A stretch of 64,000 nucleotides of DNA from Candidatus Margulisiibacteriota bacterium (lineage in GTDB: Bacteria; Margulisbacteria; WOR-1; O2-12-FULL-45-9; XYB2-FULL-48-7), in the NCBI GenBank assembly GCA_041658645.1, contig JBAZZV010000006.1:19486-83485 (forward strand), in the 5' to 3' direction. Below are positions 637 through 46,783 of this stretch, piece after piece (positions within the stretch are counted from its first letter, which is position 1; each line of letters starts with the position of its first letter). Below the pieces are notes generated by a model, which was not told where the DNA came from, searched no databases, and saw only the letters and a list, made by a program, of their open reading frames with translations. Both the position numbers and the translations under genes were made by a program.

Positions 637-647
637 GATGAAAGACC

Positions 648-765
648 CAATGACTAATGTCTAATGAACTAATGACTAATTGTGGTTCGCTTCGCATTAT
701 GCATTTAATAAACATTATGTTTGGCGTTCCTTCATTCGGCATTCGTCATTAGTCATTCGTCATTA
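648..765. repeat. MITE-like element with imperfect inverted arms built from AATGAC(T/G)AATG / CATT(A/C)GTCATT units (repeat family 1)
   Basis: Left arm 648-682 caatgactaatgtctaatgaactaatgactaattg, right arm 732-765 tcattcggcattcgtcattagtcattcgtcatta; related single arms at 26873-26905 and 46744-46783. Confidence 0.6.
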
Positions 766-766
766 T

Positions 767-3899: not shown

Positions 3900-5213
3900 A
3901 TGTTCAAGATCAGGCCGAGTTTGATCATCGTTATCAGCTTTTTGCTGGTCATTCTGACCGGCGCCATCCTCCTTTCTCTGCCGCTCGCTTCCTCGCAAGG
4001 GACAACGACCAATTTCCTGGACGCTTACTTCACGGCCAATTCCGCCACCTGCGTGACTGGACTGGTCACGCTCGACACCGGGACCCATTTTTCACTCTTC
4101 GGCAAGATCATTTTGATCCTCCTGATGCAGATCGGCGGCCTCGGTTACATGACCTTTTCGACCTTCATGGTCCTCGTCTTCCGCCACAAACTGTTCATCT
4201 CCCAGAAGCTCGTTATCCAGGAAGCGCTCAACGTCTATTCCAGCCGCGACGTCATCAATGTCCTGCGGCGGATCTTTGGCATCGTCTTTTTCTTTGAGGG
4301 GGTCGGCGCCCTGATCCTCGCCCTCCGCTGGTGGCCGGAGTTCGGCTTACCCAAAGCGATCTTCTGGGGAGTCTTTCACTCGGTCTCGGCCTTTAACAAT
4401 GCCGGTTTCGCCCTGCCGGCTAAATTTGCCAATCTTATCCCTTACGCCACCGATTGGGTCATCAACCTGACAGTTACCACCCTGATCATTTTCGGCGGGC
4501 TCGGCTTTATCGTCATTGCCGATATCCTCCAGCACAAACGCTTTTCCCTCCACTCCAAAGTGGTCATCTTCACCACCCTCTGCCTGCTCATCGGCGGAAC
4601 GATCTTTATCTTCGCCCTGGAACATAACAACCCCAAAACGATCGGGGGAATGAGCCTCCCCCACCAGGCGCTTGCCTCATATTTCCAGGCGGTCACCCCG
4701 CGGACCGCCGGCTTCAACACTATCGATTACGGCAAGATCGTCCCGGCCACCGCCCTCTTCTCGATGTTCCTGATGTTCATCGGGGCAAGCCCCGGCGGCA
4801 CCGGCGGCGGCGTCAAGACCACGACCTTCGCCCTCATCATCATGACGATCGGCGCCACCCTGCGCGGGGCCAAAAACACCATCATGTTCGACCGGCGCGT
4901 GCCGGCCGAAACGGTCCGCCGCGCCTTTGCCATCACCTCCCTCGCCCTGGCCCTCGTCGCGATCGCCGTCTTCGCCCTGAACCAATCGGAAACATTTGGC
5001 CTGACCGAGGTCGCCTTTGAGACTTTTTCCGCTTTCGGCACCGTCGGGCTCTCCATGGGGATCACCCCCTTCTTGAGTTCTCTCGGAAAAATCATCATAA
5101 TAACCGTCATGTTCATCGGGCGGGTCGGCCCGCTGACCCTGATGCTCGCCCTGGCCATGGAACAAAAAGAACCAAAGATCGAAGTTCCGAAGGAGGGAAT
5201 ATCAATCGGATGA
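3900..5213 (+). CDS. ktrB: Ktr/Trk system potassium uptake membrane subunit (KtrB/TrkH family)
   Basis: 437 aa; four MPM repeats with selectivity-filter-like glycine motifs (e.g. GLGY, ATGGGVKTTT). Confidence 0.85.
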   Translation: MFKIRPSLIIVISFLLVILTGAILLSLPLASSQGTTTNFLDAYFTANSATCVTGLVTLDTGTHFSLFGKIILILLMQIGGLGYMTFSTFMVLVFRHKLFISQKLVIQEALNVYSSRDVINVLRRIFGIVFFFEGVGALILALRWWPEFGLPKAIFWGVFHSVSAFNNAGFALPAKFANLIPYATDWVINLTVTTLIIFGGLGFIVIADILQHKRFSLHSKVVIFTTLCLLIGGTIFIFALEHNNPKTIGGMSLPHQALASYFQAVTPRTAGFNTIDYGKIVPATALFSMFLMFIGASPGGTGGGVKTTTFALIIMTIGATLRGAKNTIMFDRRVPAETVRRAFAITSLALALVAIAVFALNQSETFGLTEVAFETFSAFGTVGLSMGITPFLSSLGKIIIITVMFIGRVGPLTLMLALAMEQKEPKIEVPKEGISIG

Positions 5214-5875
5214 AAAAACAATTTGCGGTGCTAGGGATCGGTCGTTTCGGCAGTAAGATCGCCCGGGAGTTATTTTACAAAGGGCAGGAAGTCGTGGCTA
5301 TAGATAAAGACGAGAAGGTGATCGACGACATCAAGGACGAGGTGACCCACGCCTATGTCGGCGACATTACCGATTCGGACGCGCTGAAAGAGGCCGGCGT
5401 AGCCGACTGCGACACGGTCATCATCGCCGAATCCTCGAACATGGAGAGCAATATCATCGCCGCCCAGATCTGCAAGGAGCTGGGGGTCGCCCAGGTGATC
5501 TGCAAAGCGCAGAACACCCTGCACGGCAAGATCCTAGGAAAACTAAGCGTCGACCAGATCGTCTACCCGGAACAGGACACCGCCATCAAGCTGGTCAATA
5601 AGCTGACCAGCCAGGGGGTGCTGGACTATTTTGATATCGGGGAGAATCTAACTATAGTCGGGGCCAAAGCACAGACCGAATGGGTCGGCCGGAAACTCTC
5701 CGACCTTGACCTGCGCAACAAGTTCAACATCACGGTCCTGGCGCTCCGGCGCGGCGGGGAGAATATCGTTATCCCGGCTTGGAGCACGGTCATAGAAAAA
5801 GAGGATACGATCGTCTTCTTCGGCCGCGAGGATTCGCTCAAGAAGATGAACCTCGACATCACCCACCGGACCTAG
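5210..5875 (+). CDS. ktrA: Ktr/Trk system NAD-binding regulatory subunit (KtrA/TrkA)
   Basis: 221 aa; GxGxxG Rossmann motif (GIGRFG), RCK_N and RCK_C domains; 4-nt overlap with ktrB. Confidence 0.85.
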   Translation: MKKQFAVLGIGRFGSKIARELFYKGQEVVAIDKDEKVIDDIKDEVTHAYVGDITDSDALKEAGVADCDTVIIAESSNMESNIIAAQICKELGVAQVICKAQNTLHGKILGKLSVDQIVYPEQDTAIKLVNKLTSQGVLDYFDIGENLTIVGAKAQTEWVGRKLSDLDLRNKFNITVLALRRGGENIVIPAWSTVIEKEDTIVFFGREDSLKKMNLDITHRT

Positions 5876-8049: not shown

Positions 8050-8556
8050 TTAGAAGCTAAGGCTCTGGCTGACCGAGCCGGTCGCGTAAGCGTTATAGGA
8101 TGAAGTCGTTATATTCGTATGGTTCAGATCGGGCATCATGACCCGATATTCCACGCCGGCCGAGAAACCGTTCAATTCAAACTTGATACCGGCTTCACCC
8201 TGGCCGCCGGAAGTTTGGGTCGAAGCGCCGCCAACCGTGGTCGTATTGTAGCTGACCCCGGCCCCAACATAAGGGCGGATCAGCCCGGCGATCGTCTGGC
8301 TATATATCAAGTCGACGGAGACCGGCATATAGGTAACATCGATCCCGCTCGCCTTGTAGGTAGTCGTCTCCACCATCCCCCGGAGCGCCAGGTTTGGAGT
8401 AATGGCATAATCAGCCGACGCGCCCAGCATGACCGAAGCGCTGTCGGCGCCGGAACCGTTATACATACCGGCCCGGCCTGATAAATTTATTGTACCGGCC
8501 AGAACAGGGGCCACCGTTAAACAAACCAGGGACAAAACAAGCGCAAACTTTTTCAT
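8050..8556 (-). CDS. Outer-membrane β-barrel protein (OmpW/OmpA-like) with signal peptide
   Basis: Start MKKFALVLSLVCLTVAPVLAG, preceded by GGAGGTG RBS; alternating amphipathic strands; C-terminal ...SLSF. Confidence 0.7.
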   Translation of the reverse strand: MKKFALVLSLVCLTVAPVLAGTINLSGRAGMYNGSGADSASVMLGASADYAITPNLALRGMVETTTYKASGIDVTYMPVSVDLIYSQTIAGLIRPYVGAGVSYNTTTVGGASTQTSGGQGEAGIKFELNGFSAGVEYRVMMPDLNHTNITTSSYNAYATGSVSQSLSF

Positions 8557-9253: not shown

Positions 9254-9840
9254 TGAAGATCACTACGCTCAAAGTCGGCTCGATCCGGACCAACTGTTAT
9301 ATCGTAGAAGATGAAGCGACGAAAAAAGCTCTGGTCATCGATGCCGGGGCGGAGCCGGAGCGGATCCTTGGCTTGCTCCAGAAAAACGGGTTAAAGCTCG
9401 AGTTGATCATCGCCACTCACGGCCACTTTGACCACCTGGAGGGGGTTCGCCGGCTCAAGGAAAAAACCGGCGCCCGTTTCCTGATGCACCAGGCCGATCT
9501 GTTCGGCTTGAAAACGACCGACGCCCCCCAACCGGACGGCTTCCTGGCTGATTCAAATACTTTTGAAGTTGGAGGTTTGAGGTTTGAAGTTCTTCACACG
9601 CCTGGCCACAGCCCCGGAGGGATCAGCCTGTATAATGAAAAAGAGCAAGTCCTGTTCAGCGGCGATACTTTATTCCAGGGGACCTACGGCCGGGTCGACC
9701 TCCCCTTTTCGGATGAAGGAAAAATGATCAATTCGCTCCAACGTCTGCTTAAATTACCTCCGGAAACGGTCGTCTACCCCGGCCACGGGAACGCCACGAC
9801 GATCGGGGCCGAACGGAACGTAATTAAGACCGCCTGGTAA
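9253..9840 (+). CDS. MBL-fold metallo-hydrolase (glyoxalase-II/YcbL-like)
   Basis: HGHFDH motif, FEVLHTPGHSPG, downstream D and H ligands. Confidence 0.8.
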   Translation: MKITTLKVGSIRTNCYIVEDEATKKALVIDAGAEPERILGLLQKNGLKLELIIATHGHFDHLEGVRRLKEKTGARFLMHQADLFGLKTTDAPQPDGFLADSNTFEVGGLRFEVLHTPGHSPGGISLYNEKEQVLFSGDTLFQGTYGRVDLPFSDEGKMINSLQRLLKLPPETVVYPGHGNATTIGAERNVIKTAW

Positions 9841-13965: not shown

Positions 13966-14123
13966 AAATTAATCACTATGATATATCCCTAATTAACAGG
14001 GAAAATTTCATAGTTATTTTATTTAAGAAAACTGAAAAGCCATTGAGCTTGAAATATCTTGATTTTTTTACAATTGGCCCCCAGTCCCCTGAAATCCCCG
14101 CAATAATTCACGGATAATAGATC

Positions 14124-14741
14124 ATGAAACCCAGCTCAATATCAGAGCCGGCCCCGGCAACGGGGAAACATTATAGATCGAGGATCACTCTGGCCGAACG
14201 AGCGCAGATTGCGGCGCAGGAGCGGACGATCGGTCTGGAGCAAGCGCGGGCGCACTGCAACTTAGCTCGGTTCGAGCTGGGCGGCAACCAATTTCAATTA
14301 TTTCGCAGCGGAGGATTCAACGATCCGGAGCTTGTAGCGCTGGTCGTTTCACATCTAGGTTCTGTATTTAAAGGTTTTTCGATCGGACTTTTTTTTACGG
14401 ACAACGATGGGACCACTTTTGTTCATGCCATGGTCGCGGCGGCCGGAGCTATCCATTCGTCAAGTCTTTATCAACCCGCCAAAACAGCACTCGAACTCTT
14501 CAAGCTCTGTTTCAATATTAAGGAGGGCCGCATGGAAATGAGCCATATAGAATCCAAGATACTGGGCAAAGGCGGCCAGGCTCTGATCGCGCTCTATAAT
14601 ATTGCCCGTGAGTATGGAGCCAAGATCATCAAATATGACGTCCGCGCAGCCAACCGGCCCGCCCAGTGTTTATATGCGAATCTGGGTTTCGGTACCCCCA
14701 ATAGTTGGCGTAACCAATGGATCGTTAAGATCATCCCCTAG
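14124..14741 (+). CDS. Hypothetical protein with C-terminal GNAT acetyltransferase-like region
   Basis: 205 aa; C-terminal ...GAKIIKYDVRAANRPAQCLYANLGF resembles GNAT core; the gene sits exactly between a 33-mer and lipoprotein upstream sequence that are contiguous in the second copy (16277-16320). Confidence 0.45.
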   Translation: MKPSSISEPAPATGKHYRSRITLAERAQIAAQERTIGLEQARAHCNLARFELGGNQFQLFRSGGFNDPELVALVVSHLGSVFKGFSIGLFFTDNDGTTFVHAMVAAAGAIHSSSLYQPAKTALELFKLCFNIKEGRMEMSHIESKILGKGGQALIALYNIAREYGAKIIKYDVRAANRPAQCLYANLGFGTPNSWRNQWIVKIIP

Positions 14742-14803
14742 TCCCCAATCAAAATTACGAATGATGAATGCGGACTGCGGAATAATTCTGTTATAATACG
14801 TCC

Positions 14804-14989
14804 GTGAAAAAGCTCTCGATCTTTTTTAGCCTGATAACGCTACTTTTGATCACTCTCTACGGTTGTGGCCAAAATAGCCAACCCTCAACCGGTCCGATTT
14901 TCACCGACCCCGCGACTAAGATCGCCGAGCTTTCGACCCAGGACTTTACTATTAAGATCTTTTACGAGGCGGTGGCGCTGGAGCCGTAA
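14804..14989 (+). pseudogene. Truncated N-terminal duplicate (61 codons) of the lipoprotein gene at 16376-17113
   Basis: 14742-14990 is ~90 % identical to 16311-16560, including upstream region, GTG start and lipobox LITLYGCGQ; stop after ...ALEP. Confidence 0.7.
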
Positions 14990-15052
14990 AGTGGTATAAT
15001 TACACACGAGCGGTTTTATAGGATCAGGAATTCGCATTACGGGGAGGAAAAA

Positions 15053-15613
15053 ATGAAGATATTGAAATGGTTTCTGATCGTTGTCCTTATCGTCATCGCC
15101 GCCGTGCTCTCTTTTCTCTGGTACCTGGGAGTTTTCAGCACTTTAAAAGTCAGCGAGAGGGAAATGGGCCCCTTCACCATCGCTTATAAGCATTACGTCG
15201 GGGAATATAAGGACACCGGCAAGGTCTTCATGGAAGTCTCTAATGCGATGAAAGATCTCGGCCTGGAGGTTTCTAATAAATCGGACAGCCTCGGCATCTA
15301 TTATGACAACCCGGCCACGGTGGCAAAAGACAAATTGAGAAGCGACTGCGGCATCGTCATTGCGGGCAAAGACCTGGCCAAAGCCCCGGCCCTGCTGAAA
15401 AAGGGCCTCAAAGTGATGACCATTGGGAAAAAGCCCTGCGTGGTGGCCGAATTCCCCATTCGAAACGTGATGTCATTCATGGTCGGCCCGGCCAAAGGCT
15501 ATCCCGCGCTGGCTAAATACGCCGCGCAAAAAAATCATAAAGCAGGCCGGATGTACGAATTCTATGACATGAAGAATAATTTGATCCTCTTCACGCTGGA
15601 GATCGCCAGGTAA
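15053..15613 (+). CDS. Membrane-anchored GyrI-like (effector/small-molecule-binding) domain protein
   Basis: N-terminal TM helix, then GyrI-like pattern incl. GIYYDNPATV...RSDCGIVI. Confidence 0.55.
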   Translation: MKILKWFLIVVLIVIAAVLSFLWYLGVFSTLKVSEREMGPFTIAYKHYVGEYKDTGKVFMEVSNAMKDLGLEVSNKSDSLGIYYDNPATVAKDKLRSDCGIVIAGKDLAKAPALLKKGLKVMTIGKKPCVVAEFPIRNVMSFMVGPAKGYPALAKYAAQKNHKAGRMYEFYDMKNNLILFTLEIAR

Positions 15614-15665
15614 AAAAGGACGGGCCGGTAAAAAAATGCATGCCCGGCCGGAAAACGGCGGCAGA

Positions 15666-16220
15666 TTAAGCTTTAATATTTTCAGCCAGGCGAAAAAAAC
15701 GGCCGAGTGTTCTTTTATCCGCAAAATCGTAACCGTGACTATGATACACAAAGTCGCAGGAAGTCACAACATTCTGCTTTTTGCCGATCAAAGTTGACGT
15801 TAGTTCATACCCGCTCACTGATAATTGAGCACCCAAAATCTTATAGGTGTCATCCAATTCGGTCATGTTCAGCAGCCGAAATTCGCGGCCGGGCTCTCTA
15901 TTCCGCCACCCGATATAAGCCATGGCATCCTCATAATTGATGCAATCCACGGAAGCACCGGCTTTGCCTCTTTTTACAAGAGAAATAAGTGGCCGCGCGT
16001 TGTCCCCCGTGATCTGATAGTCGGACTCTTTGACGAATTTACGGAATTGGCCGACCGTGACTTCGCCTCTCATGACCCTGTATTTTTTCCCCGGGATCTC
16101 GATCATTTCTTCGCAACGAGGGCCCCTGCTACCCCTAACCGGCCCAAGCCCGGCCAGCCGCTGCGCCGGCAATCTTACTCCTGATCTTTTTATTTCCATA
16201 TATATCTTTCTCCTGTTCAT
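15666..16220 (-). CDS. FGE-sulfatase/SUMF1-family-like domain protein (short)
   Basis: YRVMRGEVTVGQFRKF...SVDCINYEDAMAYIGWRN resembles the FGE-sulfatase family fold; only 184 aa, possibly truncated. Confidence 0.4.
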   Translation of the reverse strand: MNRRKIYMEIKRSGVRLPAQRLAGLGPVRGSRGPRCEEMIEIPGKKYRVMRGEVTVGQFRKFVKESDYQITGDNARPLISLVKRGKAGASVDCINYEDAMAYIGWRNREPGREFRLLNMTELDDTYKILGAQLSVSGYELTSTLIGKKQNVVTSCDFVYHSHGYDFADKRTLGRFFRLAENIKA

Positions 16221-16375
16221 ATGTATATTGGAAAATAAATCGGGAGATTTCAGGCAATCTTAGCCAACCGAAAAGTCAGTCCCCTGAAATCCCCGCGATA
16301 ATTCACGGATTAGTCCCCAGTCAAAATTACGAATGATGAATGCGGACGGCGGAATAATTCTGTTATAATACGTCC

Positions 16376-17113
16376 GTGAAAAAGCTTTCGATCTTTTTTA
16401 GTCTGATAACGCTACTTTTGATCACCCTCTACGGCTGTGGCCAACAGAATCAAAGCTCCACCGGCCCGATTTTCACCGACCCCGCGACCAAGCTCGCCGA
16501 ACTGGCCAGCCAGGACTTTACTGTTAAGCTTTTTTACGAGGCGGTGGCGCTGGAGCCGAAGCTGAACCAGGCCGGGGTCCGGGCCAGCATCGGTTTCTGG
16601 TCGCGCTCGCCCAACCGGGACAATCTGGTCGTCCTCCTGAACACGATCAACGCTTACGTCTCAACCGAAACCTATCGGGCGATCTGGGATGAAGGGACGA
16701 CAACCGCTACCGCCCAGCAGTATCCCTCTTACATCACCATGAACAAGGAATACTGGTATGAGCGCGCTTATCCGTTAAGCGACGGGACAGTTTCGATCGA
16801 AGGGGCCCACTACGCCGACCCGCATCCGGTCACGACGCTCGAGGCGGACCTGATCTGGGGAGCTTATTCCCAGCGCTACACCGACACAGCCAAACTGATC
16901 CGGCAGGCGACCGGCATTACGGTCGAATCGTGGTGTTTTGTTCAGGGTGCGCGGGCGCCAAGAATATTCTACGCTTTCGAATTGCCCGAATTAGTCTCGC
17001 TGGAAGCAACCGGGGATGTCTACGTCCATTTCGCTACGACTTATGAAGCCAGTTGGTTAAACGCGAGCCAGTGGATAACAGGGACAACGAATGCCCCGAC
17101 GCCGGAGCCGTAG
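16376..17113 (+). CDS. Lipoprotein of unknown function (full-length copy); GTG start 6 nt after TATAAT
   Basis: MKKLSIFFSLITLLLITLYGCGQ lipobox; TATAAT 16364-16369. Confidence 0.7.
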   Translation: MKKLSIFFSLITLLLITLYGCGQQNQSSTGPIFTDPATKLAELASQDFTVKLFYEAVALEPKLNQAGVRASIGFWSRSPNRDNLVVLLNTINAYVSTETYRAIWDEGTTTATAQQYPSYITMNKEYWYERAYPLSDGTVSIEGAHYADPHPVTTLEADLIWGAYSQRYTDTAKLIRQATGITVESWCFVQGARAPRIFYAFELPELVSLEATGDVYVHFATTYEASWLNASQWITGTTNAPTPEP

Positions 17114-17136
17114 AATAGATGCTTACACTACTTAAA

Positions 17137-17826
17137 TTACTTTCCTGTCGTTTGTAGTGTAAGAATTATTTCTTGCGCCTCTTTCTCACGCATAACCAAA
17201 TGCGCCTTTGACCATTCCAGGGCCGCAATAATGGCCTTCTTCCAGGGTTTAGGCAATTCTTCATAGTAATCAATGATTAGTCGTTTGTCACTCGCCGTTA
17301 GCGCGAGTATCGCATGTTCAAGGTCTTTGCGTTTCTTATCTGTATTCTTTCTTCTGGCCGCGATTAACAGCTTGTGTAGTCCAAAACAAACCATATTCGG
17401 GACCAAAACATCAATGCTCTGTTCTTTTACCCATACCGGATTTTTAAAAAGGATATCAACAAATCGTAAAGGGATCGCCTTAATGCTTAGGTTCCTGACC
17501 TCTTTCGCCCCAACCTCTCCCCGACCCCTTTCCGGAGTCAAGAACTCTACTTTTAGATCTGTCCCCCACATATAGATCGAACCATCTGAATTAAACCCGG
17601 TTTTGAAACCCAATGGGGCCAACAACGCAGCAATATCAATTTTATTTTTGGCTTTATATGGGCTGGGGATAAGAAAATCAATATCTACAGTCCTAAAAGG
17701 ATACGCTTTCACGCCAAAATGTTTCTGATAAAGAAGAAAACACCAGCTACCGATCAACTCGACACCCTCATCCCATAAGCCGTTTTCCTGAAATACTCGC
17801 AATATTTTATGAACAATGCCGATCAT
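17137..17826 (-). CDS. Nucleotidyltransferase-fold protein (AbiEii/GSU2403-like putative toxin)
   Basis: 229 aa; ...FRTVDIDFLIP... NTase-like segment; ATGA overlap with upstream small gene. Confidence 0.5.
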   Translation of the reverse strand: MIGIVHKILRVFQENGLWDEGVELIGSWCFLLYQKHFGVKAYPFRTVDIDFLIPSPYKAKNKIDIAALLAPLGFKTGFNSDGSIYMWGTDLKVEFLTPERGRGEVGAKEVRNLSIKAIPLRFVDILFKNPVWVKEQSIDVLVPNMVCFGLHKLLIAARRKNTDKKRKDLEHAILALTASDKRLIIDYYEELPKPWKKAIIAALEWSKAHLVMREKEAQEIILTLQTTGK

Positions 17827-18128
17827 TTTTGCTTTTTTCTGCCTTTTGTTCTATTTAATATCTTGATCATTTCCTTTGTTTTTTTTAATTCCTTTATCAA
17901 TTTCATCCTTTCGTTTATTTTCTCCTTTATTTCCTCCGGCTCATCCTTTCCCAGGTATTTGTGAACCACTTTCGGCCCTCTCCTGACTTGAAGATAATAA
18001 TAATTCTTTCCGCCGATTTTCCTCTTCTTGACGCTCCCTTTAGGCAGGCGCCCTAAACGGGCGATGATCTTTTTCTCAGTCTGGAGATAATAATCCATGC
18101 TTTCCTTTAAGATATCTTTTAAAACCAT
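17823..18128 (-). CDS. Small basic partner protein of the NTase gene (putative antitoxin/regulator)
   Basis: Start MVLKDIL preceded by AGGAGG; KIGGKNYYYLQVRRG motif; 5' part of the six-frame ORF up to 18248 is probably untranslated. Confidence 0.45.
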   Translation of the reverse strand: MVLKDILKESMDYYLQTEKKIIARLGRLPKGSVKKRKIGGKNYYYLQVRRGPKVVHKYLGKDEPEEIKEKINERMKLIKELKKTKEMIKILNRTKGRKKQK

Positions 18129-18140
18129 CACACGCCTCCT

Positions 18141-18180
18141 TACACTACATTTGTAGATTATATCGGCTTTGTAGTGTAAT
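18141..18180 (-). promoter_or_regulatory. Palindromic operator TTACACTACA...TGTAGTGTAA flanking a TATAAT -10 box upstream of the NTase-partner operon; a second copy of the same inverted repeat lies at 17123-17165 just past the operon stop
   Basis: Minus-strand reading ttacactacaaagccgaTATAATctacaaatgtagtgtaAGGAGGcgtgtgATG. Confidence 0.5.
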
Positions 18181-18263
18181 AGCAAGCGGCTATTCAATCG
18201 GCTGCTTATTGCCCAACAAATATCAAAATATGGTATTTTGTTGGGCAACTAGCGTTAAGCGGT

Positions 18264-18461
18264 TTGCGTTTCGAATCGTGGTGTTTTGTCCAGGGTGCGC
18301 GGGCGCCAAGAATATTCTACGCTTTCGAATTGCCCGAATTAGTCTCGCTGGAAGCAACCGGGGATGTCTACGTCCATTTCGCTACGACTTATGAAGCCAG
18401 TTGGTTAAACGCGAGCCAGTGGATAACAGGGACAACGAATGTTCCGGCTCCGGAACCCTAG
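18264..18461 (+). pseudogene. C-terminal duplicate (65 codons) of lipoprotein gene 16376-17113
   Basis: 18262-18461 ~97 % identical to 16921-17113. Confidence 0.75.
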
Positions 18462-18970
18462 TTTCCGGCCCCCTGTCCCTGACCTCCTTCATTATAAATC
18501 ACTTTTCGATTCCGATTATCCATGAACGAAACCGTAAACGGCGCGTTGAACTTGGTGCGATTGCCGGCTTTATCGGTCATGATAATGTGAAAATTAAACT
18601 TGCCGTCGGACAGGGTCGCGATCGTCCAAGCGACGTTGAGCTTCTTCCCTTTTTTGAGATTGGCGGCAGCTAAGACATCTCCGGTTAGACGCTGCCGGCC
18701 GTTCCCCATCCACGCCTCGACTTCGACGCTGACATCCTCGTCGGCGGAAAACGTCATGACCGGCAAATTAGTGGGGGTCATGACATTTTGAGGGGAAACG
18801 GTGGGCCGGAAGAGAAACCCGGGCGGTTTTTTATCAATAATTTTTTTCTTTAACTTCGTGTTTTTAACCGGTTGTTTGGCGATCTTTTTGACGGCGCCGG
18901 CTACCGGACCGGCTCCTGGCAGGAGCGAGAAGGAAAAAAGAACGATCACCAGGTAGATAATTGATCTCAT
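18458..18970 (-). CDS. Secreted hypothetical protein
   Basis: Start MRSIIYLVIVLFSFSLLPGAGPVAGA (signal peptide); no known domain. Confidence 0.5.
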   Translation of the reverse strand: MRSIIYLVIVLFSFSLLPGAGPVAGAVKKIAKQPVKNTKLKKKIIDKKPPGFLFRPTVSPQNVMTPTNLPVMTFSADEDVSVEVEAWMGNGRQRLTGDVLAAANLKKGKKLNVAWTIATLSDGKFNFHIIMTDKAGNRTKFNAPFTVSFMDNRNRKVIYNEGGQGQGAGN

Positions 18971-19246
18971 GGGCCTAATTGTAGCCCTTTCTGTTGAGGG
19001 AGACAAGTCAAACCCCCAATCCTCGCCCCCAACCGGCTCAAAGCTCCTGACCCACGCCTCCAGCAATCCCGAAACCCTGGCGACCGGATACCCTTTAACG
19101 GTCCTAGCCGGCACAGCCTGGGCCTATCTCCTCCCAATCGTGATAATCGGCATTTTGTTGATGGTCACGTTTAAAGAGCACGGGAAATAGAAGGGAAAGT
19201 AGCCCTAGTATCCGCCTGGACATCAATAGTGAGGTAAAATTCGGGG

Positions 19247-19630
19247 CTAGTTTTCCGTCGCGCCTAAATAAGCGAACGATTGTGGCGGGCATATGCCATA
19301 CTTGGATTTAATATCATACGACTCTTCATACTTAATATAATTTTTTATTTTAATCGCATATCCGGTTTCCTTCCCGCAAAAATAGTCATGAAAATAATCC
19401 ATTGATATTCCCGCGAACATTTTAGTGTTTTCCCACAAAGAATGTAAATCATCTGATATTATTGATTCTATTTCGAATTCCCCGATCACCCTCCCCACTG
19501 GTGCTGACGCGTAAACGACGACTCGATTTACGCCCTTCCTTTTAAATATCGCTCGCCTAAATTCATACTTTTTTTCCCCGCAAAATATCTTGTCAGCATA
19601 TTCCGGCTTAATGGATAATAATACTTTCAT
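19247..19630 (-). CDS. ASCH (PUA-like) domain protein
   Basis: MKVLLSIKPEYADKIFCGEKKYEFRR... matches ASCH N-terminal consensus; low-GC; 23-nt overlap with upstream PIN gene. Confidence 0.65.
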   Translation of the reverse strand: MKVLLSIKPEYADKIFCGEKKYEFRRAIFKRKGVNRVVVYASAPVGRVIGEFEIESIISDDLHSLWENTKMFAGISMDYFHDYFCGKETGYAIKIKNYIKYEESYDIKSKYGICPPQSFAYLGATEN

Positions 19631-21134
19631 TTGTTTTCGTCTCCTTTAGGATTAGATTAAGTTGATCTTTGCTAATTCGTGCAAACCCCCTTGGCGCCGA
19701 ATCAATATCTTTTATAATTTTTAAGTCTATTAGCTCCTTCAGGTTTAATCGCCTAGGGAATGAGTATGCACAAAGGAAATATACTACAAATGGGCGCCTC
19801 CCAGGGTTATAGTTCCACCATCCTGACAGCTCCTCTCGCGTAAATACACTTCGCTTCCCACACAATTCAATAAATCTTTCTTCATTTTCGATGTTGTCCT
19901 TCACCCCTTCGATTATACCGATTGTAGTAATTACAGACTTGAAATATCCCCCGGTTCTATAGAATACGATTAAGTCCCCTCTTCTTATGTTCCTTTCGAT
20001 TGATCTGCTTATGTAAACCTTACTAATCGCGTTACGAAATGGCTTGTCACCTTCGTAGTCCTCGGGCAATTCTGTTCGAAGGATCGAATCAGGCAAGAGA
20101 GTGGTATGATATTCTGGATATATTGGAGTGATAAATATATTATTGTCTGCCGAAATATAAGGGAAAGTAATTTTGGGCGCAGTGGGATTAAACTTTGGCG
20201 TAAAATCACGCACACACACCTCCTCCACGTCCCTGCAACTTGATGATTTTTTGTAACCATAATGATTGAAACCGAATTTCCTTAATAATTCTTTCAATCT
20301 CAACCTTTCAATACGCTCGTCGCAAATAGTCACATATATTTCTTCGGCCTTAAATAGTAGCGCGTGGTCAAAGACAATTTTCAAGAACCGTTCTCCCAAA
20401 TTAAACCCATTTGCGGCCACCTTAAATGTGCCGATTTTTAATCTTTTTTTACTGGCAAAAGCCGGTTCGATATCCGGGTATTTTTCCCCCTTATTCTCTA
20501 TTTTGATGTATAAAAAAGCTAATATTTTCTCATCCTGCATACAAACATACGCATCATCTTCTGATTTTCTATTAAACCAATCATCGAATCCGGGATAATC
20601 TTGTCTTAATGAATCAAAAAATTCATCTCTAATGTTTAAGTTGCCGAAATGCTCTTTTCTTACAGATAAAACCTTATAATTTATCAATGATGGATTCTCA
20701 GCTCTGACTCTTGCCAAAAACCCATCGATTGTAAAAACCGATGATGCTAGGCCAAGCCGGATCGCCTTATCATGAACACCACCATCTTCACTAATTAACA
20801 GGTCGACCCTTTTATTCATCAACTCATTCAACAACAAAGAATCATTAGTATCATTCTCGTTTTTGTCTAGCGGGAAACAGAGAGATTCAATCAATGGGTG
20901 GATAGGCGCTTTAGTTCGTAATACCGTATAACTTCCCAGCTTAATAAGAAAAGCTTTTACTGTTTTTGGGTCACGATGTTTTTCAATTTCCTCAACCGAA
21001 AGTGGGTGCGCACATTTAACAAAGTGCAAATCATCAAGCCATTTGAATAAAATGCCGATATCTGGGTCGACTGGGGTCGTTGCCTCTCGATGAATGATAA
21101 TATTCGTATCGAGTAAGACTTTTTTCCCTGTCAT
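19608..21134 (-). CDS. Multidomain protein: N-terminal PIN nuclease, central GNAT-like acetyltransferase, C-terminal PUA-like (ASCH/EVE-like) region
   Basis: VLLDTNIIIHRE + downstream acidic residues (PIN); ...ILAFLYIKIEN...RLKIGTFKVAANGFNLGERFLKIVFDHA...LLRKFGF (GNAT-like); RGDLIVFYRTGGYFKSVITTIGIIEGV (PUA-like); ~38 % GC. Confidence 0.55.
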   Translation of the reverse strand: MTGKKVLLDTNIIIHREATTPVDPDIGILFKWLDDLHFVKCAHPLSVEEIEKHRDPKTVKAFLIKLGSYTVLRTKAPIHPLIESLCFPLDKNENDTNDSLLLNELMNKRVDLLISEDGGVHDKAIRLGLASSVFTIDGFLARVRAENPSLINYKVLSVRKEHFGNLNIRDEFFDSLRQDYPGFDDWFNRKSEDDAYVCMQDEKILAFLYIKIENKGEKYPDIEPAFASKKRLKIGTFKVAANGFNLGERFLKIVFDHALLFKAEEIYVTICDERIERLRLKELLRKFGFNHYGYKKSSSCRDVEEVCVRDFTPKFNPTAPKITFPYISADNNIFITPIYPEYHTTLLPDSILRTELPEDYEGDKPFRNAISKVYISRSIERNIRRGDLIVFYRTGGYFKSVITTIGIIEGVKDNIENEERFIELCGKRSVFTREELSGWWNYNPGRRPFVVYFLCAYSFPRRLNLKELIDLKIIKDIDSAPRGFARISKDQLNLILKETKTNESIIIH

Positions 21135-21209
21135 TTATAGCCGAATTCTACGCTCTTTACAGGAAATAGCAAGCTCGGCCCTGAGTTCTATTGACAAGCA
21201 AATATAGCG

Positions 21210-21989
21210 GTGGGAGAATCTCCCCTGAACCTATTTTTGGGTAATAACATGACAAAGAACAAAAGAGCGTTTAAATTTCTTAGCGATTACATTAGACATT
21301 TAGAAAATGTAATTGATGAGAATGGACTAACCTTATTTCGGGGATTGGGCAAGGACTACCCTCTAGTACCTCGAATTGCAAGGATATTACTTAAAAACCC
21401 TCTTACAGCGACAGAAAATAGAATGATGAGGGATTTTCAATTAAAAAGCAGACCCTTCTTATCTATTGTTCCAAATTCTAGCTGGGATTGGTTAGCCTTG
21501 GCCCAACATCATGGATTACCAACCAGGTTAATGGACTGGACTAACAATCCGCTTGCCGCGTTATGGTTTGCCGTAAAGGATCCTCCTATAAATAATAATG
21601 ATGGCATTGTTTGGATGTTCAACGTCAATAAAGCTGATGTCCTTTCAGAAGACGAGAAAAAAACACTTAGCCCCAATCGTAACGGTCAAACAAGAATTTT
21701 TCAGCCAAACCATATCGCCGACCGCATTGCGAACCAAGGCGCATGGTTCACGGTCCATAAGTATAATTTTAGTAGAACGACACATAACGGATTTGTCCCA
21801 TTAGAGAACATGAAACGATATAAGCACTGTTTGACGCGATACCGAATTCCAGCAAAATATTTTTATGACATTCGATTTCATCTCGACTTGTGTGGTTTTA
21901 ACCATGCGTCATTATTCCCTGGGTTAGACGGCCTATGTAAACATTTATCTTGGTATCATTCTCTGCTAGAAGATGAAATAGACAAGTAA
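21210..21989 (+). CDS. FRG-domain protein
   Basis: LFRGLGKDYPLVPRIAR and AQHHGLPTRLMDWTNNPLAALWFA match FRG hallmarks (YRGQ...L.PS..R; QHYGLPTRLLDWT); low-GC; divergent from PIN gene. Confidence 0.7.
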   Translation: MGESPLNLFLGNNMTKNKRAFKFLSDYIRHLENVIDENGLTLFRGLGKDYPLVPRIARILLKNPLTATENRMMRDFQLKSRPFLSIVPNSSWDWLALAQHHGLPTRLMDWTNNPLAALWFAVKDPPINNNDGIVWMFNVNKADVLSEDEKKTLSPNRNGQTRIFQPNHIADRIANQGAWFTVHKYNFSRTTHNGFVPLENMKRYKHCLTRYRIPAKYFYDIRFHLDLCGFNHASLFPGLDGLCKHLSWYHSLLEDEIDK

Positions 21990-22038
21990 ACACTTCATCG
22001 TTTTTATTGCCCACACCATTCCAACCGTCACAACGGCA

Positions 22039-22436: not shown

Positions 22437-22919
22437 TCAGAAATAAATGTGCACGCCGAGATTGCTGTTCAGGAAATAAAGCCAGGTCGTCCGGCTCCCG
22501 GCCGACATCTGGCTAAGGTAAGTGGCGAAAAATACCTTGCCGTCCAGCGCGACATGATCGTTAATAAAGACCTCGCCGCCGACAAAAGGATTGAACGCCA
22601 CCCGGTCAAAAGAGACGCCGGCACTAGAGCCCTGATTGTCCTGGACCGTCGTGCCGATCTCGAGCAGGGTGTTCGGATAGACCTCGCGAACATAAAAAAG
22701 CCCCAGCGCGAGGTTGTCAATATTGCTGTCAGCCTGGCCGCTCTGCGTGCTGTTAGAGTAAAAGACGCTAAGATCTAACCCAAAATTGTTGTTCACGAAG
22801 CCCCGAACACTTAAAGAGGTAGCCCGCAGGCCGACCCCGGTCTTGCCGCCCAGCTCCAGCGCCAGCGACGTGCCGGCCAGTAACGTGACCAGGAGCAGAA
22901 GCAAACACGCTTTTTTCAT
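22437..22919 (-). CDS. Small outer-membrane β-barrel protein (paralog 1)
   Basis: Signal peptide MKKACLLLLLVTLLAGTSLA; C-terminal ...HIYF. Confidence 0.6.
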   Translation of the reverse strand: MKKACLLLLLVTLLAGTSLALELGGKTGVGLRATSLSVRGFVNNNFGLDLSVFYSNSTQSGQADSNIDNLALGLFYVREVYPNTLLEIGTTVQDNQGSSAGVSFDRVAFNPFVGGEVFINDHVALDGKVFFATYLSQMSAGSRTTWLYFLNSNLGVHIYF

Positions 22920-22929
22920 GAATTTCTCC

Positions 22930-23415
22930 CTATAAATAAATGTGCGCGCCGAGCTCGCCGGTCAGGACGTTAAGCGCAGTCGACCTGGACCCGGCTTCCA
23001 TCTGGCTGCTGTAAGCGCCAAAGAAGACCTTGCCGTCCAGTCCAACGTGGTCATTGATAAAGCACTCCGCTCCGATGAACGGATCGAGCTCGAGGCCGCT
23101 GTAAAAGGTGCCGGCATCGTACCCCTGCCACCCCAGCACATTCACGCCGATCTCAAGCAGTGTATTGGGGTAGATCTCCCACGCCCTAAAACAGCCGAGC
23201 GAATAATCGTATTCGGTGCTGTCCTGCTGGCCGCTCCGGGTCCTGTTAAAATAACTGGCCGTTACATCGAAGCCCAGATTATTGTTCACGAAGCGCCGGA
23301 CCGAAAAGCCGCTAACCTGCAGGCCGAGCCCGGTTTTACCGCCAAGCTCCATCGCCATCGACATGCCGGCCAGCAACGTAACCAGGAGCAGAAGCAAACC
23401 TGCCTTTTTCATCAA
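22930..23415 (-). CDS. Small outer-membrane β-barrel protein (paralog 2, tandem duplicate)
   Basis: ~50 % identical to the neighbour; signal peptide; C-terminal ...HIYL. Confidence 0.6.
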   Translation of the reverse strand: MMKKAGLLLLLVTLLAGMSMAMELGGKTGLGLQVSGFSVRRFVNNNLGFDVTASYFNRTRSGQQDSTEYDYSLGCFRAWEIYPNTLLEIGVNVLGWQGYDAGTFYSGLELDPFIGAECFINDHVGLDGKVFFGAYSSQMEAGSRSTALNVLTGELGAHIYL

Positions 23416-23541
23416 CGATCCCTCCTTATGGGATTCAAACTGCGCTAATACTAGCGCCGCAGTCAGCCGAATGCAAGAGGAACTCTTCGCCGCCCCAAAA
23501 AAAGTGAGGGCGAGTTATCGATTAAAGCAGAAAACAGTGGA

Positions 23542-24660
23542 TCACCGGCGATGGGCGATCAGCCAATCCAAGCTCCTTTCCCAAACCTCACCTTCCGCGT
23601 TATTACCAATGACCAGATCGTTGTGCCCGCTCCCTTTGATGACCACAAAATTCGTCTCAGCTTGAGGCGTCAAGGCTTTTTGGGCCAGGCGGACGCTTTC
23701 CGGCGGAGCCAATTTATCCTTTTCGCCGGCAATAAATAAACAGTTCGGCCGCTCCCCTCGCCTGCTTCTCAAACCGGCATAGTAATCAAAATCCCCGCCT
23801 AATGAAACAAACCCCTCGCGAATGAATTGACTATATGAGTTTTCCAGGCCGGAAGGGATCGGCTCAACGATTCTGGCAAAAAAAGCGCGCAAAGTCTTAT
23901 GTTTTACATTATCTGGTTCATATAAAAAATCAAACTGCCTGCTTTTTAAGGCTCGATCCGGCAATAAAGCGGCCAGACTGGCAAAGAGATGGAGTTTGGC
24001 CGAAAGAGTCCCGCCGATCGTTTGTTCTTCCGCTCCTAAAATCTTTGAGAACCGGTTTATATTAGCGATCAAACGAGCCAAAGAAAGAGTAATGCGAATT
24101 GGGCTGCCGATCGCCACCAAATTGCCGATCCGATCGTCACCGTATTTTGCCAGATAGGCATAAGCCAGCATCCCGCCCATGCTAAAACCGACCCAGGAAA
24201 GGCGCTCGGTCCCCGCGTCTTTAGCTACCAGGTCGAGGACCAGCGGCAAATCAAGATTGACCATTTGGTCAAAATTCAAAGCGGGCGACACATTATAACG
24301 TTTACCGTAATAAACGCTCTCGGGGCAATGGCGGGAGACAAAACGGTTATAAACCAGCTCCGAACTTGGGTAATGCCAAAGATAAACCGCGAACCCCTGA
24401 CTGGCCAACAAATTAGCAAAAGACCTGGCATGATCAAAAGTCAGGATCTGGCCGTTATCCGTTCTTAAACGGAAAAGATTGCCGTTACAGGCGATCCCTG
24501 GGGCCATAATGACCGGTCCCAGCCGCGGCTTCCAGGCGGCGGTGGTGGTGATCTTTTTTACGAAGACTTCCCGTCCACCCTGGTTCGCGAACAGGCTTTT
24601 GCCCGTTAAATAATACGGACTGGTCAACCGTGAATGATCTTTAGGAGCAATGATTGTCAT
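23542..24660 (-). CDS. α/β-hydrolase-fold protein (lipase/esterase-like)
   Basis: GFSMGG nucleophile elbow; 372 aa. Confidence 0.65.
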   Translation of the reverse strand: MTIIAPKDHSRLTSPYYLTGKSLFANQGGREVFVKKITTTAAWKPRLGPVIMAPGIACNGNLFRLRTDNGQILTFDHARSFANLLASQGFAVYLWHYPSSELVYNRFVSRHCPESVYYGKRYNVSPALNFDQMVNLDLPLVLDLVAKDAGTERLSWVGFSMGGMLAYAYLAKYGDDRIGNLVAIGSPIRITLSLARLIANINRFSKILGAEEQTIGGTLSAKLHLFASLAALLPDRALKSRQFDFLYEPDNVKHKTLRAFFARIVEPIPSGLENSYSQFIREGFVSLGGDFDYYAGLRSRRGERPNCLFIAGEKDKLAPPESVRLAQKALTPQAETNFVVIKGSGHNDLVIGNNAEGEVWERSLDWLIAHRR

Positions 24661-24744
24661 ATCACTATGACTTCGCTGAAAATAACCGGGGATTTCAAGG
24701 GGATTGCCAAGCCGCTGTTCGCCATGTCATTGCAGTTAAATAAA

Positions 24745-24880
24745 TGTCCTAGCCATCGAAACATCATGCGACGAGACCTCCGCTTCTGTAGTAAAAGACG
24801 GGAGCGAAGTTTTGTCGAACGTCATCTCTTCCCAGGTCGAATTCCACAAAAAATACGGCGGGATCGTGCCGGTGGTTTGC
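24745..24880 (+). pseudogene. Degenerate duplicate of the tsaD 5' end (first ~45 codons)
   Basis: ~75 % nt identity to 25912-26046, ending in the identical 22-mer aaatacggcgggatcgtgccgg. Confidence 0.7.
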
Positions 24881-24907
24881 TTCCCCCAAGCGATTAATTG
24901 ACTTCTC

Positions 24908-24923
24908 CGGTGTAATATATTAC
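24908..24923. promoter_or_regulatory. Perfect 16-bp palindrome GTGTAATATATTACAC plus extra GGTGTAA half-site, 25 nt upstream of the MNT gene (putative TA operator)
   Basis: Direct reading of sequence. Confidence 0.5.
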
Positions 24924-24948
24924 ACTTATCGGTGTAAGGCCAAACAAT

Positions 24949-25503
24949 ATGATCTCCCTGAAATCAGAAATAACACAGCAAGTATTGAACTATTTTTTCC
25001 TGAACCCGCAGGAAAGCCTTTATATCAATGAGCTGGCCAGGCAGCTTTCCCTTGACAAAAGGAACCTGGTAAAAAAGATCAAAGAGCTGGAAAATGATGG
25101 TCTTTTGATCAGCTGGTCGCGCGGCAATCTGAAGCTTTACGCCATTAACCGAAAGTTCCCCTTATACAAGGAGTACAAAAACATTGTGCTCAAAACAGTC
25201 GGCTTTGAAAAAGAACTTAAAGACGTTCTTAAAGGAACGGCCGGCGCCGAGAAAGCCTATATTTACGGCTCATATGCGAGGGATAAAATGGACGCTCACA
25301 GCGACATTGATCTTCTGGTTATCGGCAACCACGGGGTTGTTCTGCTGCAAAGAAAGATTTCACGCCTCCAGAAAAAAATTGGCCGTGAAATAAATGCCGT
25401 GAATATGAGCGCCGGGGAGTTCAGGAAACGCAGGGCAAACCAAGACCCTTTCCTTCAAAACATTTTAAAAAACAAATATATTGAGATCAAAAATGAAATT
25501 TGA
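24949..25503 (+). CDS. Minimal nucleotidyltransferase (MNT-type) with N-terminal wHTH
   Basis: GSYARD...SDIDLLVIG NTase motif; AT-rich. Confidence 0.7.
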   Translation: MISLKSEITQQVLNYFFLNPQESLYINELARQLSLDKRNLVKKIKELENDGLLISWSRGNLKLYAINRKFPLYKEYKNIVLKTVGFEKELKDVLKGTAGAEKAYIYGSYARDKMDAHSDIDLLVIGNHGVVLLQRKISRLQKKIGREINAVNMSAGEFRKRRANQDPFLQNILKNKYIEIKNEI

Positions 25504-25897
25504 TAACAAATATTTCAGCCAGCATGATTTCCCCAAGGCGCAGATCGAGAAAAACCTTGGCAATGCCATTAAAGACTTGAATATCGCTAAAAAAGACAAT
25601 ATTTTAGATGTAAAATTTAATTACGCTTACTCCGCCCTATTAAAAACCGGCCTCACTTTATTGAGCCAACAACAGATCAAAATAAAAAGCGCGCCCGGAC
25701 ATCACATCAAGATCATTGAAGCAATGGCTGAATTATTAAAAGATGATTCGATCGCTGACGTTGGGAACGCCATGCGTTCAAAGCGAAACATTGATATGTA
25801 TTCCGGCGGCATTGAAGTCACCAAAAAGGAATGCGAGGAATATATTGATTTTGTTGATAAGATTGTTGTTCAAGTAAAAGCTTTTCTCGCTTTTTAA
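25493..25897 (+). CDS. HEPN-domain protein, partner of the MNT
   Basis: Overlaps the MNT gene by 11 nt; α-helical ~135 aa with MRSKRNIDMY segment. Confidence 0.55.
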   Translation: MKFDNKYFSQHDFPKAQIEKNLGNAIKDLNIAKKDNILDVKFNYAYSALLKTGLTLLSQQQIKIKSAPGHHIKIIEAMAELLKDDSIADVGNAMRSKRNIDMYSGGIEVTKKECEEYIDFVDKIVVQVKAFLAF

Positions 25898-25899
25898 AT

Positions 25900-26949: not shown

Positions 26950-26987
26950 CGCTTGCCCCGAGAATATCGAGGGGTTATAATGGCTCC

Positions 26988-27266: not shown

Positions 27267-27267
27267 A

Positions 27268-27335
27268 TGTAGGGACAACCCTTGTGGTTGTCCGAAATAA
27301 ACGGACAGGGACAAGCCCTGTCCCTACATTTTCCA
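27268..27335 (+). other. Composite nested palindrome/stem-loop between gatC and gatA
   Basis: atgtagggacaacccttgtggttgtcc...ggacagggacaagccctgtccctacat: two inner hairpins enclosed by outer stem atgtaggga/tccctacat. Confidence 0.5.
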
Positions 27336-42763: not shown

Positions 42764-44195
<1,432 letters not shown>

Positions 44196-44226
44196 AGCTC
44201 CCCTCACCCTAGCTTCGTTCAAGCTT

Positions 44227-46781: not shown

Positions 46782-46783
46782 AA
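46744..46783. repeat. Family-1 repeat arm (cattcgtcattcgaaattggttattcgtcatt)
   Basis: Similarity to 648-765 and 26873-26905. Confidence 0.5.

Follow-up and report, generated by a model that had tools for sequence, protein, structure and literature searches.

Dispersed heptanucleotide arrays, probably of STRR type, at gene junctions and within conserved genes of a Candidatus Margulisiibacteriota bacterium

A 64-kb stretch of DNA from a Candidatus Margulisiibacteriota bacterium (hereinafter referred to as the window) was found to contain about 10 short tandem arrays of heptanucleotide units, which belonged to at least three unit families. The family under study, Family 1, consists of the unit AATGACN (complement NGTCATT), repeated head to tail every 7 nt. 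In addition to the window, about 1.7 kb to its left was examined, and related contigs (denoted by L-numbers) were used for comparison. The reading that we favor, with a probability of roughly 0.6, is that these are dispersed repeats of the short tandemly repeated repetitive (STRR) type, spread by a non-local process; the dispersing enzyme or pathway was not found in the window. One Family-1 copy, an inverted doublet at 649-764, is a lineage-specific insertion of about 125 nt into a stop-to-start junction that is normally 6 nt long.

Heptamer arrays in the window and the doublet between the AI-2E transporter gene and mutM

The motif CATTMGTCATT (CATT[AC]GTCATT) had 7 exact matches in the window, compared with 0.05 ± 0.22 in dinucleotide-preserving shuffles. 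When N and one mismatch were allowed, 23 matches were obtained against 3.7 expected. Tandem Repeats Finder (TRF) reported period 7 with 4.4-4.7 copies in each arm of the doublet and in both single Family-1 arms, and period 7 was the sole strongly enriched tandem period (7 arrays; periods 4-12 otherwise gave 0-2, and shuffled sequence 0-1). Dispersed arrays in several unit families are the pattern by which STRR sequences are recognized. A preliminary description, made from the letters of the DNA alone, had proposed a dispersed family with inverted arms. The motif excess and the further copies found here support it, while the heptamer tandem unit and the wider multi-family heptanucleotide-repeat phenomenon had been overlooked. 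The three clear copies formed one repeat group (D9), with 727-767 as the reference and 26878-26918 and 46736-46776 being 85 and 76% identical to it, respectively.

The window was derived from a metagenome assembly, and short repeats can be mis-assembled. An assembly artefact or chance similarity was nevertheless ruled out, and its probability is practically negligible: identical or orthologous arrays were present in independent assemblies (ENA L001 and L176, Logan L122, JGI L125 and L177, and NCBI L178), reading frames were intact, and the motif count was far above chance.

The doublet and the intergenic segment that contains it were composed as follows.

649-680, plus strand: Family-1 left arm, about 4.4 imperfect AATGACT units (TRF period 7, 84% matches)
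681-727, no strand assigned: spacer of 47 nt, AT-rich, with small internal palindromes
728-764, plus strand: Family-1 right arm, about 5 units of CATTCGT, CATTAGT or CATTCGG; reference copy of D9
637-766, minus strand: AI-2E-to-mutM intergenic segment of 130 nt, read as an insertion and forming a long imperfect hairpin as RNA

The left arm reads AATGACT AATGTCT AATGAAC(T) AATGACT AATT and forms the 3' arm of the hairpin on the minus-strand transcript. The right arm reads (TTC)CATTCGG CATTCGT CATTAGT CATTCGT CATT; on the minus strand this becomes AATGACG AATGACT AATGACG AATGCCG AATGAAG, directly past the stop of the AI-2E transporter gene. Both flanking genes are on the minus strand and were confirmed by Pfam: the AI-2E transporter gene (767-1807) ends with TAG at 769-767, and mutM/fpg starts with ATG at 636-634 (N-terminus MPELPEVE). 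The element of about 120 bp with inverted arms that had been reported between these genes is thus real, and corresponds to two inverted arrays. Since the arrays end 2 nt off the AI-2E stop and 12 nt off the mutM start, the doublet donates neither codon.

Three related contigs that share this gene order (L127, L129, and L131; about 66-71% protein identity) had a gap of only 6 nt between the two genes (TAAccgATG, TAGcctATG, and TAAtcaATG, respectively), which identifies the element as an insertion specific to the lineage of the window. An identical element was detected on L176, another contig of metagenome sample ERZ27249422, and this was the sole further record of the doublet at this junction. 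The 47-nt spacer occurred once in all sequence examined.

The transcribed strand of the element was predicted to fold at -30.1 kcal/mol, compared with -21.4 ± 2.7 kcal/mol for shuffled sequences (z = -3.2), and none of 200 shuffles was as stable. The hairpin probably uncouples or remodels the translation of mutM, and it may act like a repetitive extragenic palindromic (REP)-type mRNA hairpin. The AI-2E 3' end (GAAAGCC) was also complementary over 7 bp to GGGTCTTTC ahead of the mutM ATG, a match too short to interpret.

It is conceivable that the element is a selected cis-regulatory RNA, such as a terminator, an attenuator, an mRNA stabilizer or a translational-coupling device, with the heptamers serving as regulator-binding sites, a role that has been suggested for TAACTGA repeats. 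The significant fold and the position exactly between the stop and the start of a co-directional pair would fit this. Moreover, the final AI-2E codons in L127 and L129 include a Shine-Dalgarno-like sequence (AAGGAG/AAGGAA; AGGGAA in L131), and the corresponding sequence at the AI-2E end of the window was degraded. The insertion displaced this sequence, and the translation of mutM must therefore now work differently. Arrays in other phyla also lie directly past ORF ends or directly before ORF starts, and post-transcriptional regulation has been proposed for TAACTGA arrays (MacGregor, 2015; PMC4679880). In contrast, the element was absent from the orthologous junction of the three contigs with the same gene order, and its arms were only about 75% complementary. 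A terminator scan around the element found no T-tract terminator inside it, a promoter scan gave only a weak promoter-like match, and an Rfam scan of the whole window at gathering thresholds returned only a tRNA (42764-42836), with no match to the element. Further, unrelated housekeeping genes contain the same arrays in frame, and a role in regulation is unlikely there. Selected cis-regulation is hence a quite unlikely account of the arrays.

Arrays at the permease junction and within conserved genes

The remaining arrays were found at a permease gene junction, in frame within conserved genes and, in one case, as a second intergenic doublet. Within open reading frames (ORFs) only single arms (35-64 nt) occurred; both doublets were intergenic. 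Family 2 (AACTTCA / TGAAGTT) was located at 9561, 26261, 34650 and 58651-58780, and Family 3 (GGTACCA / CCCTGGT) at 26605 and 39736.

46736-46776, minus strand: Family-1 single arm at the oppB-like/oppC-like permease junction, AATGACN orientation (ORF 45966-46781)
26878-26918, plus strand: Family-1 single arm in tsaD, NGTCATT orientation without in-frame stops, encoding TsaD residues 327-339 (FINSSLDISHSSF)
26261-26324, plus strand: Family-2 single arm in tsaD loop 1, a 64-nt composite of AACTTCA x4 and AAATCCA x3, in frame
26605-26638, plus strand: Family-3 array in tsaD loop 2, GGTACCA x4.3, in frame
34650-34713, plus strand: Family-2 single arm in a radical-SAM gene, in frame
9561-9596, plus strand: Family-2 36-mer in a metallo-beta-lactamase-fold (MBL) gene, 92% identical to 58750-58785 and encoding FEVGGLRFEVLH
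39736-39764: Family-3 inverted relative (CCCTGGT), in frame in the iPGM gene
58651-58780, minus strand: Family-2 inverted doublet separating the M17 aminopeptidase gene from the ORF that follows; arms of 63 nt, loop of 3 nt

The two orientations of the Family-1 unit differ in coding properties that can be read off the sequence. (AATGACG)3 contains ATG and TGA in all three frames, so that an AATGACN array at a junction ends the upstream ORF and offers a start (ATGA) to the downstream one. In the NGTCATT orientation, the C, G, and T variants contain no stop in any frame, and such an array can therefore be translated. Orientation fitted placement, being sense at the permease junction and antisense in TsaD. 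A stop-in-all-frames logic has been described for TAACTGA repeats (MacGregor, 2015; PMC4679880).

The permease array (AATGACG AATAACC AATTTCG AATGACG AATG; translation MNKMTNNQFRMTNV) supplies the first 10-14 codons of the gene, including the candidate starts M4 and M11. The claim that an arm (then placed at 46744-46783) forms the first codons of the ABC permease was therefore accurate, as was its translation. Most of the 120 closest permease homologues are 266 aa long and start with MRKNKLAIFG, and a subclade starts with MTN[ND]K[LF][QK]MTNVG (P0126, P0128, P0131, P0132, P0156, P0217, P0178, and P0239). At the orthologous junctions of L177 and L178, AATGACA-type units were found with the TGA stop of the upstream permease (oppB) inside the array; in L177, stop and start overlap as ATGA. 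A pure (AATGACG)n array would read MTNDE followed by a stop, and the unit with the in-frame TGA was altered in all three species (unit 3 in the window). This is consistent with selection for an open frame, the true start codon being unproven. Four of the five array differences between the window and L177 affected position 7 of the four units. This pattern is concerted; three of these four changes would be accounted for by CpG-to-CpA decay.

The tsaD ORF (25900-26949; 349 aa; stop at 26947-26949) contained one in-frame array from each of the three families, in the order 2, 3, 1. Past the Family-1 array, the ORF continued with SLAPVASLKL, ten residues conserved in homologues, and then reached a stop outside the repeat. 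In the alignment, the array sat in a variable stretch near the C-terminus, ahead of the conserved end. The arm had previously been placed at 26873-26905 and taken to form the last codons of tsaD, which is wrong. The proposal that repeats donate start or stop regions to genes thus holds for the permease, but neither for tsaD nor for the doublet at 649-764.

Compared with the structure of Thermotoga maritima TsaD, the Family-2 array adds about 15 residues and the Family-3 array about 2. An AlphaFold model of TsaD had a mean predicted local distance difference test (pLDDT) score of 78.8 and a predicted template modeling (pTM) score of 0.75. Two segments, residues 127-138 and 335-349, scored a pLDDT below 50. 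For residues 311-330, in which the Family-1 peptide begins, block means were 68-70. In this model, the extra residues of the Family-2 array thus had a pLDDT below 50, and the Family-1 array lay in a low-confidence, probably disordered stretch. The same three variable regions bear heptamer-derived peptides of many kinds in TsaD homologues, and the tsaD DNA of each relative carried arrays at the same three positions with differing units.

Contig L123, from the same sample (ERZ27249422), was compared with 22564-27081 of the window. The two strains were 99.85% identical over 3.4 kb upstream, and the tsaD of L123 was a divergent allele (81% identity) in which Family 2 replaced Family 1 in the C-terminal stretch at equal length. 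The allele was mosaic, with divergent blocks centered on the three heptamer arrays and identical blocks between them. The comparison was rejected as proof of cassette replacement on a short timescale. Recombination between old tsaD alleles accounts for the mosaic, and L123 therefore provides no evidence of recent replacement. L123 also carries an extra 780-nt gene relative to this part of the window. Separately, copies of the first 130-150 nt of tsaD, 76-82% identical, were detected (one in the window, at 24747-24876, matching 25907-26036 of tsaD itself; three in L122, at 2093-2245, 4357-4499, and 5531-5672), lying upstream of nucleotidyltransferase (NTP_transf_2/Polbeta) and HEPN-type cassettes. 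The tsaD 5' end looks like an insertion hot spot at which incoming cassettes duplicate the target.

The Family-2 arm is a 64-nt composite (AACTTCA x4, AAACAAAT, AAATCCA x3) that was found whole at three to four unrelated loci. The doublet at 58651-58780 lies between co-directional genes and had a fold z-score of -6.2, and the TGA stop of the M17 aminopeptidase gene falls inside its repeated 36-mer. In the MBL gene, the peptide FEVGGLRFEVLH aligned without gaps to a native beta-hairpin of PDB 7ev5, with no change in length.

Two further arrays were degenerate, and each opened one copy of a 248-nt duplicated segment (copies starting at 14739 and 16311).

14753-14775, minus strand: degenerate Family-1-like array, AATTACG AATGATG AATGCGG on the plus strand (AATTACGAATGATGAATGCGG)
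16325-16347: second degenerate Family-1-like copy (AATTACGAATGATGAATGCGG), in the other copy of the duplication

The surrounding region (14000-22000) had a GC content of 0.39-0.48, compared with about 0.55 elsewhere in the window. In addition to the 248-nt duplication (14739 and 16311), it contained one of 191 nt (16923 and 18271) and three copies of a 34-mer. Most of the ORFs in this region had no Pfam match, the exceptions being NTP_transf_8, FRG, and ASCH domains. The region may be a variable or defence-type island.

Unit families at orthologous sites and the explanations of their spread

In related WOR-1 loci (L122-L138 and L177-L180), period-7 arrays, built from many kinds of unit, dominated the tandem repeats. 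Most of the more distant loci that the AI-2E query recovered lacked such arrays. L179 carried CGTCCCT arrays in all three TsaD regions; in L180, GACCCGC occupied two of these regions as well as the radical-SAM gene. The radical-SAM loop contained a heptamer array in five of five genomes, each of a different family: Family 2 in the window, and TTACGCG, AAATCCG, AAAAGTC, and GACCCGC in the four relatives. STRR1-like AGTCCCC arrays were also present in relatives (L122 at 5881 and L180 at 10361).

Radical-SAM loop arrays: window 34650-34713; L122 about 11790; L125 about 20070; L179 18713-18746; L180 18942-18973

The occurrence of the same families at unrelated loci, together with differing families at orthologous sites, would not be expected from local slippage alone. 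Another placement was seen in L122, where (CATTTGT)5 at 8335-8368 encodes SFVICYLSFVIF, the hydrophobic core of a putative signal peptide, in an ORF downstream of gatA. The orthologue in the window (from 28769) has an ordinary signal peptide, encoded by unrelated GC-rich sequence of period 9.

We therefore consider ordinary local microsatellites, each array having arisen from a chance proto-repeat by replication slippage without dispersal, to be very unlikely, and this alternative is already strongly disfavored. It would account for the short and imperfect arrays, and heptanucleotide arrays, the commonest long simple sequence repeat (SSR) class in many prokaryotes, are attributed to slippage in the summary given in PMC4679880. 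However, the same unit, and even the 64-nt Family-2 composite, recurred at unrelated loci. Sites within one genome shared a family while orthologous sites differed between genomes, and the exact 11-mer was present 7 times against 0.05 expected. With about 1,170 heptamer classes, independent origins would not be expected to place three to five loci of a single class within 64 kb.

The reading that we favor instead can be outlined as follows. Family 1 would be a dispersed repeat of the STRR type, spread by a process beyond local slippage. The arrays would mostly be neutral or selfish passengers, left by selection at permissive sites such as loops and junctions. Arrays in sense orientation would sit at junctions, and those in the stop-free orientation would be read through and survive in disordered stretches or in a signal peptide.

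A more specific version is put forward only tentatively: the array sites (e.g., the three TsaD regions, the radical-SAM loop, and the oppB/oppC junction) may be fixed, with the unit at each overwritten from time to time by the family active in the genome. The reuse of one family in L179 and in L180, the five radical-SAM families, and the 36-mer shared by the MBL beta-hairpin and the intergenic doublet point in this direction. If true, such overwriting would imply an active templated array-replacement or array-homing mechanism, so far undescribed. It would not be RecA-type conversion, because the families differ and lack homology. It might also account for the recurrence of the same few heptamers across phyla.

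Transposition offers a different explanation. The doublet could be a mobile element akin to REP doublets forming hairpins (REPINs) or miniature inverted-repeat transposable elements (MITEs), moved by a transposase encoded elsewhere (e.g., a Y1 enzyme of the RAYT or IS200/IS605 type), with the single arms as decayed remnants. Hairpin doublets coexist with singlets of the same family (one doublet and two to four singlets in Family 1, one and three in Family 2), the doublet is an insertion relative to orthologous junctions, and the AATGACG...CGTCATT layout also occurs in other phyla. This resembles the published model, which predicts inverted REP doublets, less conserved spacers, and decaying singlets (PMC3116915). 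Nevertheless, a single arm is a direct tandem array without a palindrome; apart from the arrays themselves there are no terminal inverted repeats, nor is there a target-site duplication; and only one Family-1 doublet is available for spacer comparison. In addition, the singlets occupy in-frame positions within essential genes, and genomes share these positions; decayed doublets are unexpected there because the AATGACN arm has stops in all frames. No transposase was detected among the scanned window ORFs, and we regard this explanation as unlikely.

Several observations also weigh against dispersal as we envisage it. The doublet at 649-764 is not flanked by a target-site duplication when compared with the empty junctions of L127, L129, and L131. 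Neither a transposase nor a reverse transcriptase was detected when 45 distinct window ORFs were scanned against Pfam. Y1_Tnp was likewise absent from these ORFs, and the TsaD and AI-2E products matched only their own families in precomputed Pfam assignments. The sequence examined (64 kb plus about 1.7 kb) contains three clear Family-1 loci and a single Family-1 doublet. Copy-number polymorphism was not seen, the TsaD Family-1 array being equally long in orthologues of 67-80% identity. The 36-nt copy in the MBL gene, which causes no length change, fits replacement better than simple insertion. Finally, an effect of the hairpin on mutM expression is something that we purely infer.

Other repeats of the window were of different kinds. 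A 117-nt (39-aa) tandem repeat (48448-49672; 10.5 copies, about 81% identity) lies in a 698-aa ORF on the minus strand (48410-50503) with a weak DUF6894 match. A GC-rich hairpin family (GGAAACCGCGAnGTTTAnTCGCCGGTTTCC) comprised two direct copies and one inverted relative (50617-50651, 60890-60924, and 60847-60880), all intergenic, two of them in tandem at 60845-60926. Additionally, an intergenic 67-nt double hairpin was found between gatC and gatA (27265-27331; -37.6 kcal/mol), and an intergenic palindrome of about 100 nt just past the enolase gene (44191-44291; -52.7 kcal/mol).

Distribution in other phyla and comparison with known repeat systems

The host lineage, Candidatus Margulisiibacteriota (WOR-1/Saganbacteria-related), is non-photosynthetic and kin to Cyanobacteria. 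The nearest named TsaD relatives belonged to candidate division WOR-1, and the window permease was identical to P0123, which is annotated as 'MAG: Candidatus Margulisiibacteriota bacterium'. A literature search found no account of heptamer repeats in Saganbacteria or Margulisbacteria.

The AATGACN unit is not specific to the Margulisbacteria/WOR-1 clade, which may reflect either horizontal transfer or a common sequence preference of the generating process. A scan for (CATTNGT)3CATT in one genome per GTDB species yielded at least 120 stretches. Among the matches listed, most were from Cyanobacteria and had the A, G, and T variants (Nostoc, Microcoleus, Calothrix, and Fischerella among the genera). 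Verrucomicrobia and Planctomycetes carried the C variant, which is also that of the window, and the other matches included Bacteroidetes, Acidobacteria, and a single Margulisiibacteriota genome. Inverted doublets of the unit were present at five of the listed loci. In a Gemmataceae contig (L002) and a Verrucomicrobiae contig (L069), an ORF end directly adjoins a doublet arranged as (AATGACG)n - spacer - (CGTCATT)n, with the TGA of the ORF within the first array. The array was also present in 94 stretches of IMG/VR viral contigs, a wide distribution that identified no vector. A cross-phylum comparison of sense-oriented arrays with random positions, as ends or starts of long ORFs, was uninformative: 12 of 102 arrays end and 29 of 102 start ORFs of at least 100 codons, and among random positions 40% already fall within a long open frame. 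The HIP1 palindrome GCGATCGC occurred 6 times in the window against 2.4 expected, which was not significant; the host thus shares heptamer repeats, but not HIP1 enrichment, with cyanobacteria.

Heptanucleotide repeats have been fingerprinting targets in cyanobacteria for 35 years, and their origin, spread, and function are still to be explained. Heptamer arrays, and even the AATGACN unit, are now seen in non-photosynthetic Margulisbacteria/WOR-1, where essential genes such as tsaD carry them in frame and orthologous sites keep the array while changing its family. With many metagenome-assembled genomes and conserved genes, these bacteria provide a tractable comparative system for array movement. 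In practical terms, the arrays create spurious N-terminal extensions, overlapping gene calls, shifted starts and stops, and low-complexity peptides in conserved proteins, and they seem to mark the edges of recombination tracts between strains.

TAACTGA direct repeats have been described from Beggiatoaceae, Cyanobacteria, and Bacteroidetes, at peripheral positions when within ORFs (MacGregor, 2015; PMC4679880). They resemble Family 1 in several respects (PMC4679880): the heptamer contains TAA/TGA-type stops and its forward orientation stops all frames; arrays lie at stop/start junctions, over upstream stops and before starts without Shine-Dalgarno sequences; reverse arrays occur only at the protein periphery, a permease N-terminus being among the published examples; and the spread crosses phyla with no known vector. 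Correspondingly, the oppB stop and the oppC start lie in the array in L177 and L178, TsaD carries a reverse copy close to its C-terminus, and the putative signal peptide encoded in L122 contains another. Unlike TAACTGA, the present unit is AATGACN (rotated T variant TAATGAC), which also contains ATG. Inverted TAACTGA doublets are rare (one reported; PMC4679880), compared with two in this 64-kb window, and that work made no orthologous-site comparison. The GGGNATC heptamer repeats of Xanthomonas and Nostoc (Rehm et al., 2015; PMC4692102) are likewise dispersed arrays; they cluster in the gaps of co-directional gene pairs, within 50 bp of an ORF end (PMC4692102). Family 1 differs in that it is AT-rich, forms hairpins as doublets only, and is frequent inside ORFs.

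REP/REPIN elements are mobilized by RAYT transposases (Bertels and Rainey, 2011; PMC3116915). As in REPINs, the doublet at 649-764 is an inverted extragenic pair with a spacer that is able to fold into a hairpin, and singlets coexist with it (PMC3116915). In contrast, REP is a short palindrome, and the arm described here is a direct tandem array without internal self-complementarity; the singlets lie within genes, in the reading frame, and the window yielded no RAYT. Assignment to the MITEs is opposed by the missing target-site duplication and by a spacer that occurs once. Rickettsia palindromic elements (RPE), reportedly described by Ogata et al. in 2000, are said to be selfish repeats inserted in frame in conserved genes. 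RPEs are palindromic units of 100-150 bp, inserted whole and tolerated because they encode surface segments. The arrays are similarly tolerated in frame in conserved protein-coding genes, but each in-gene site has only one non-palindromic heptamer array and no whole palindrome.

Among long SSRs of prokaryotes, those with heptanucleotide units form the most frequent class, to which the STRR of cyanobacteria belong (PMC4679880; PMC4692102). In the summaries of Mrázek, Guo and Shah (2007) provided by PMC4679880 and PMC4692102, heptanucleotide long simple sequence repeats (LSSR) are attributed to slippage. The dominance of period 7 and the scattered phylogenetic distribution are shared with LSSR so summarized; local polymerase slippage does not match the recurrence of families at unrelated loci and the switching of families at orthologous sites seen here. 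STRR were described from heterocystous cyanobacteria (Mazel et al., 1990, as cited in PMC4692102) and serve as a fingerprinting target (PMC5088731). STRR are short dispersed tandem heptanucleotide arrays with several unit families per genome, and this is what the window contains. AATGACN arrays in Nostoc, Microcoleus, Calothrix, and other cyanobacteria add a link to STRR hosts. The differences are that the host belongs to Margulisbacteria/WOR-1 and is not a cyanobacterium, that AATGACN is not among the units given for STRR1-3, that many of the window copies are in frame in housekeeping genes, and that two inverted hairpin doublets are present. On balance, Family 1 is best placed as an STRR-type heptanucleotide repeat, of a known kind but with a new unit and in a new host lineage.

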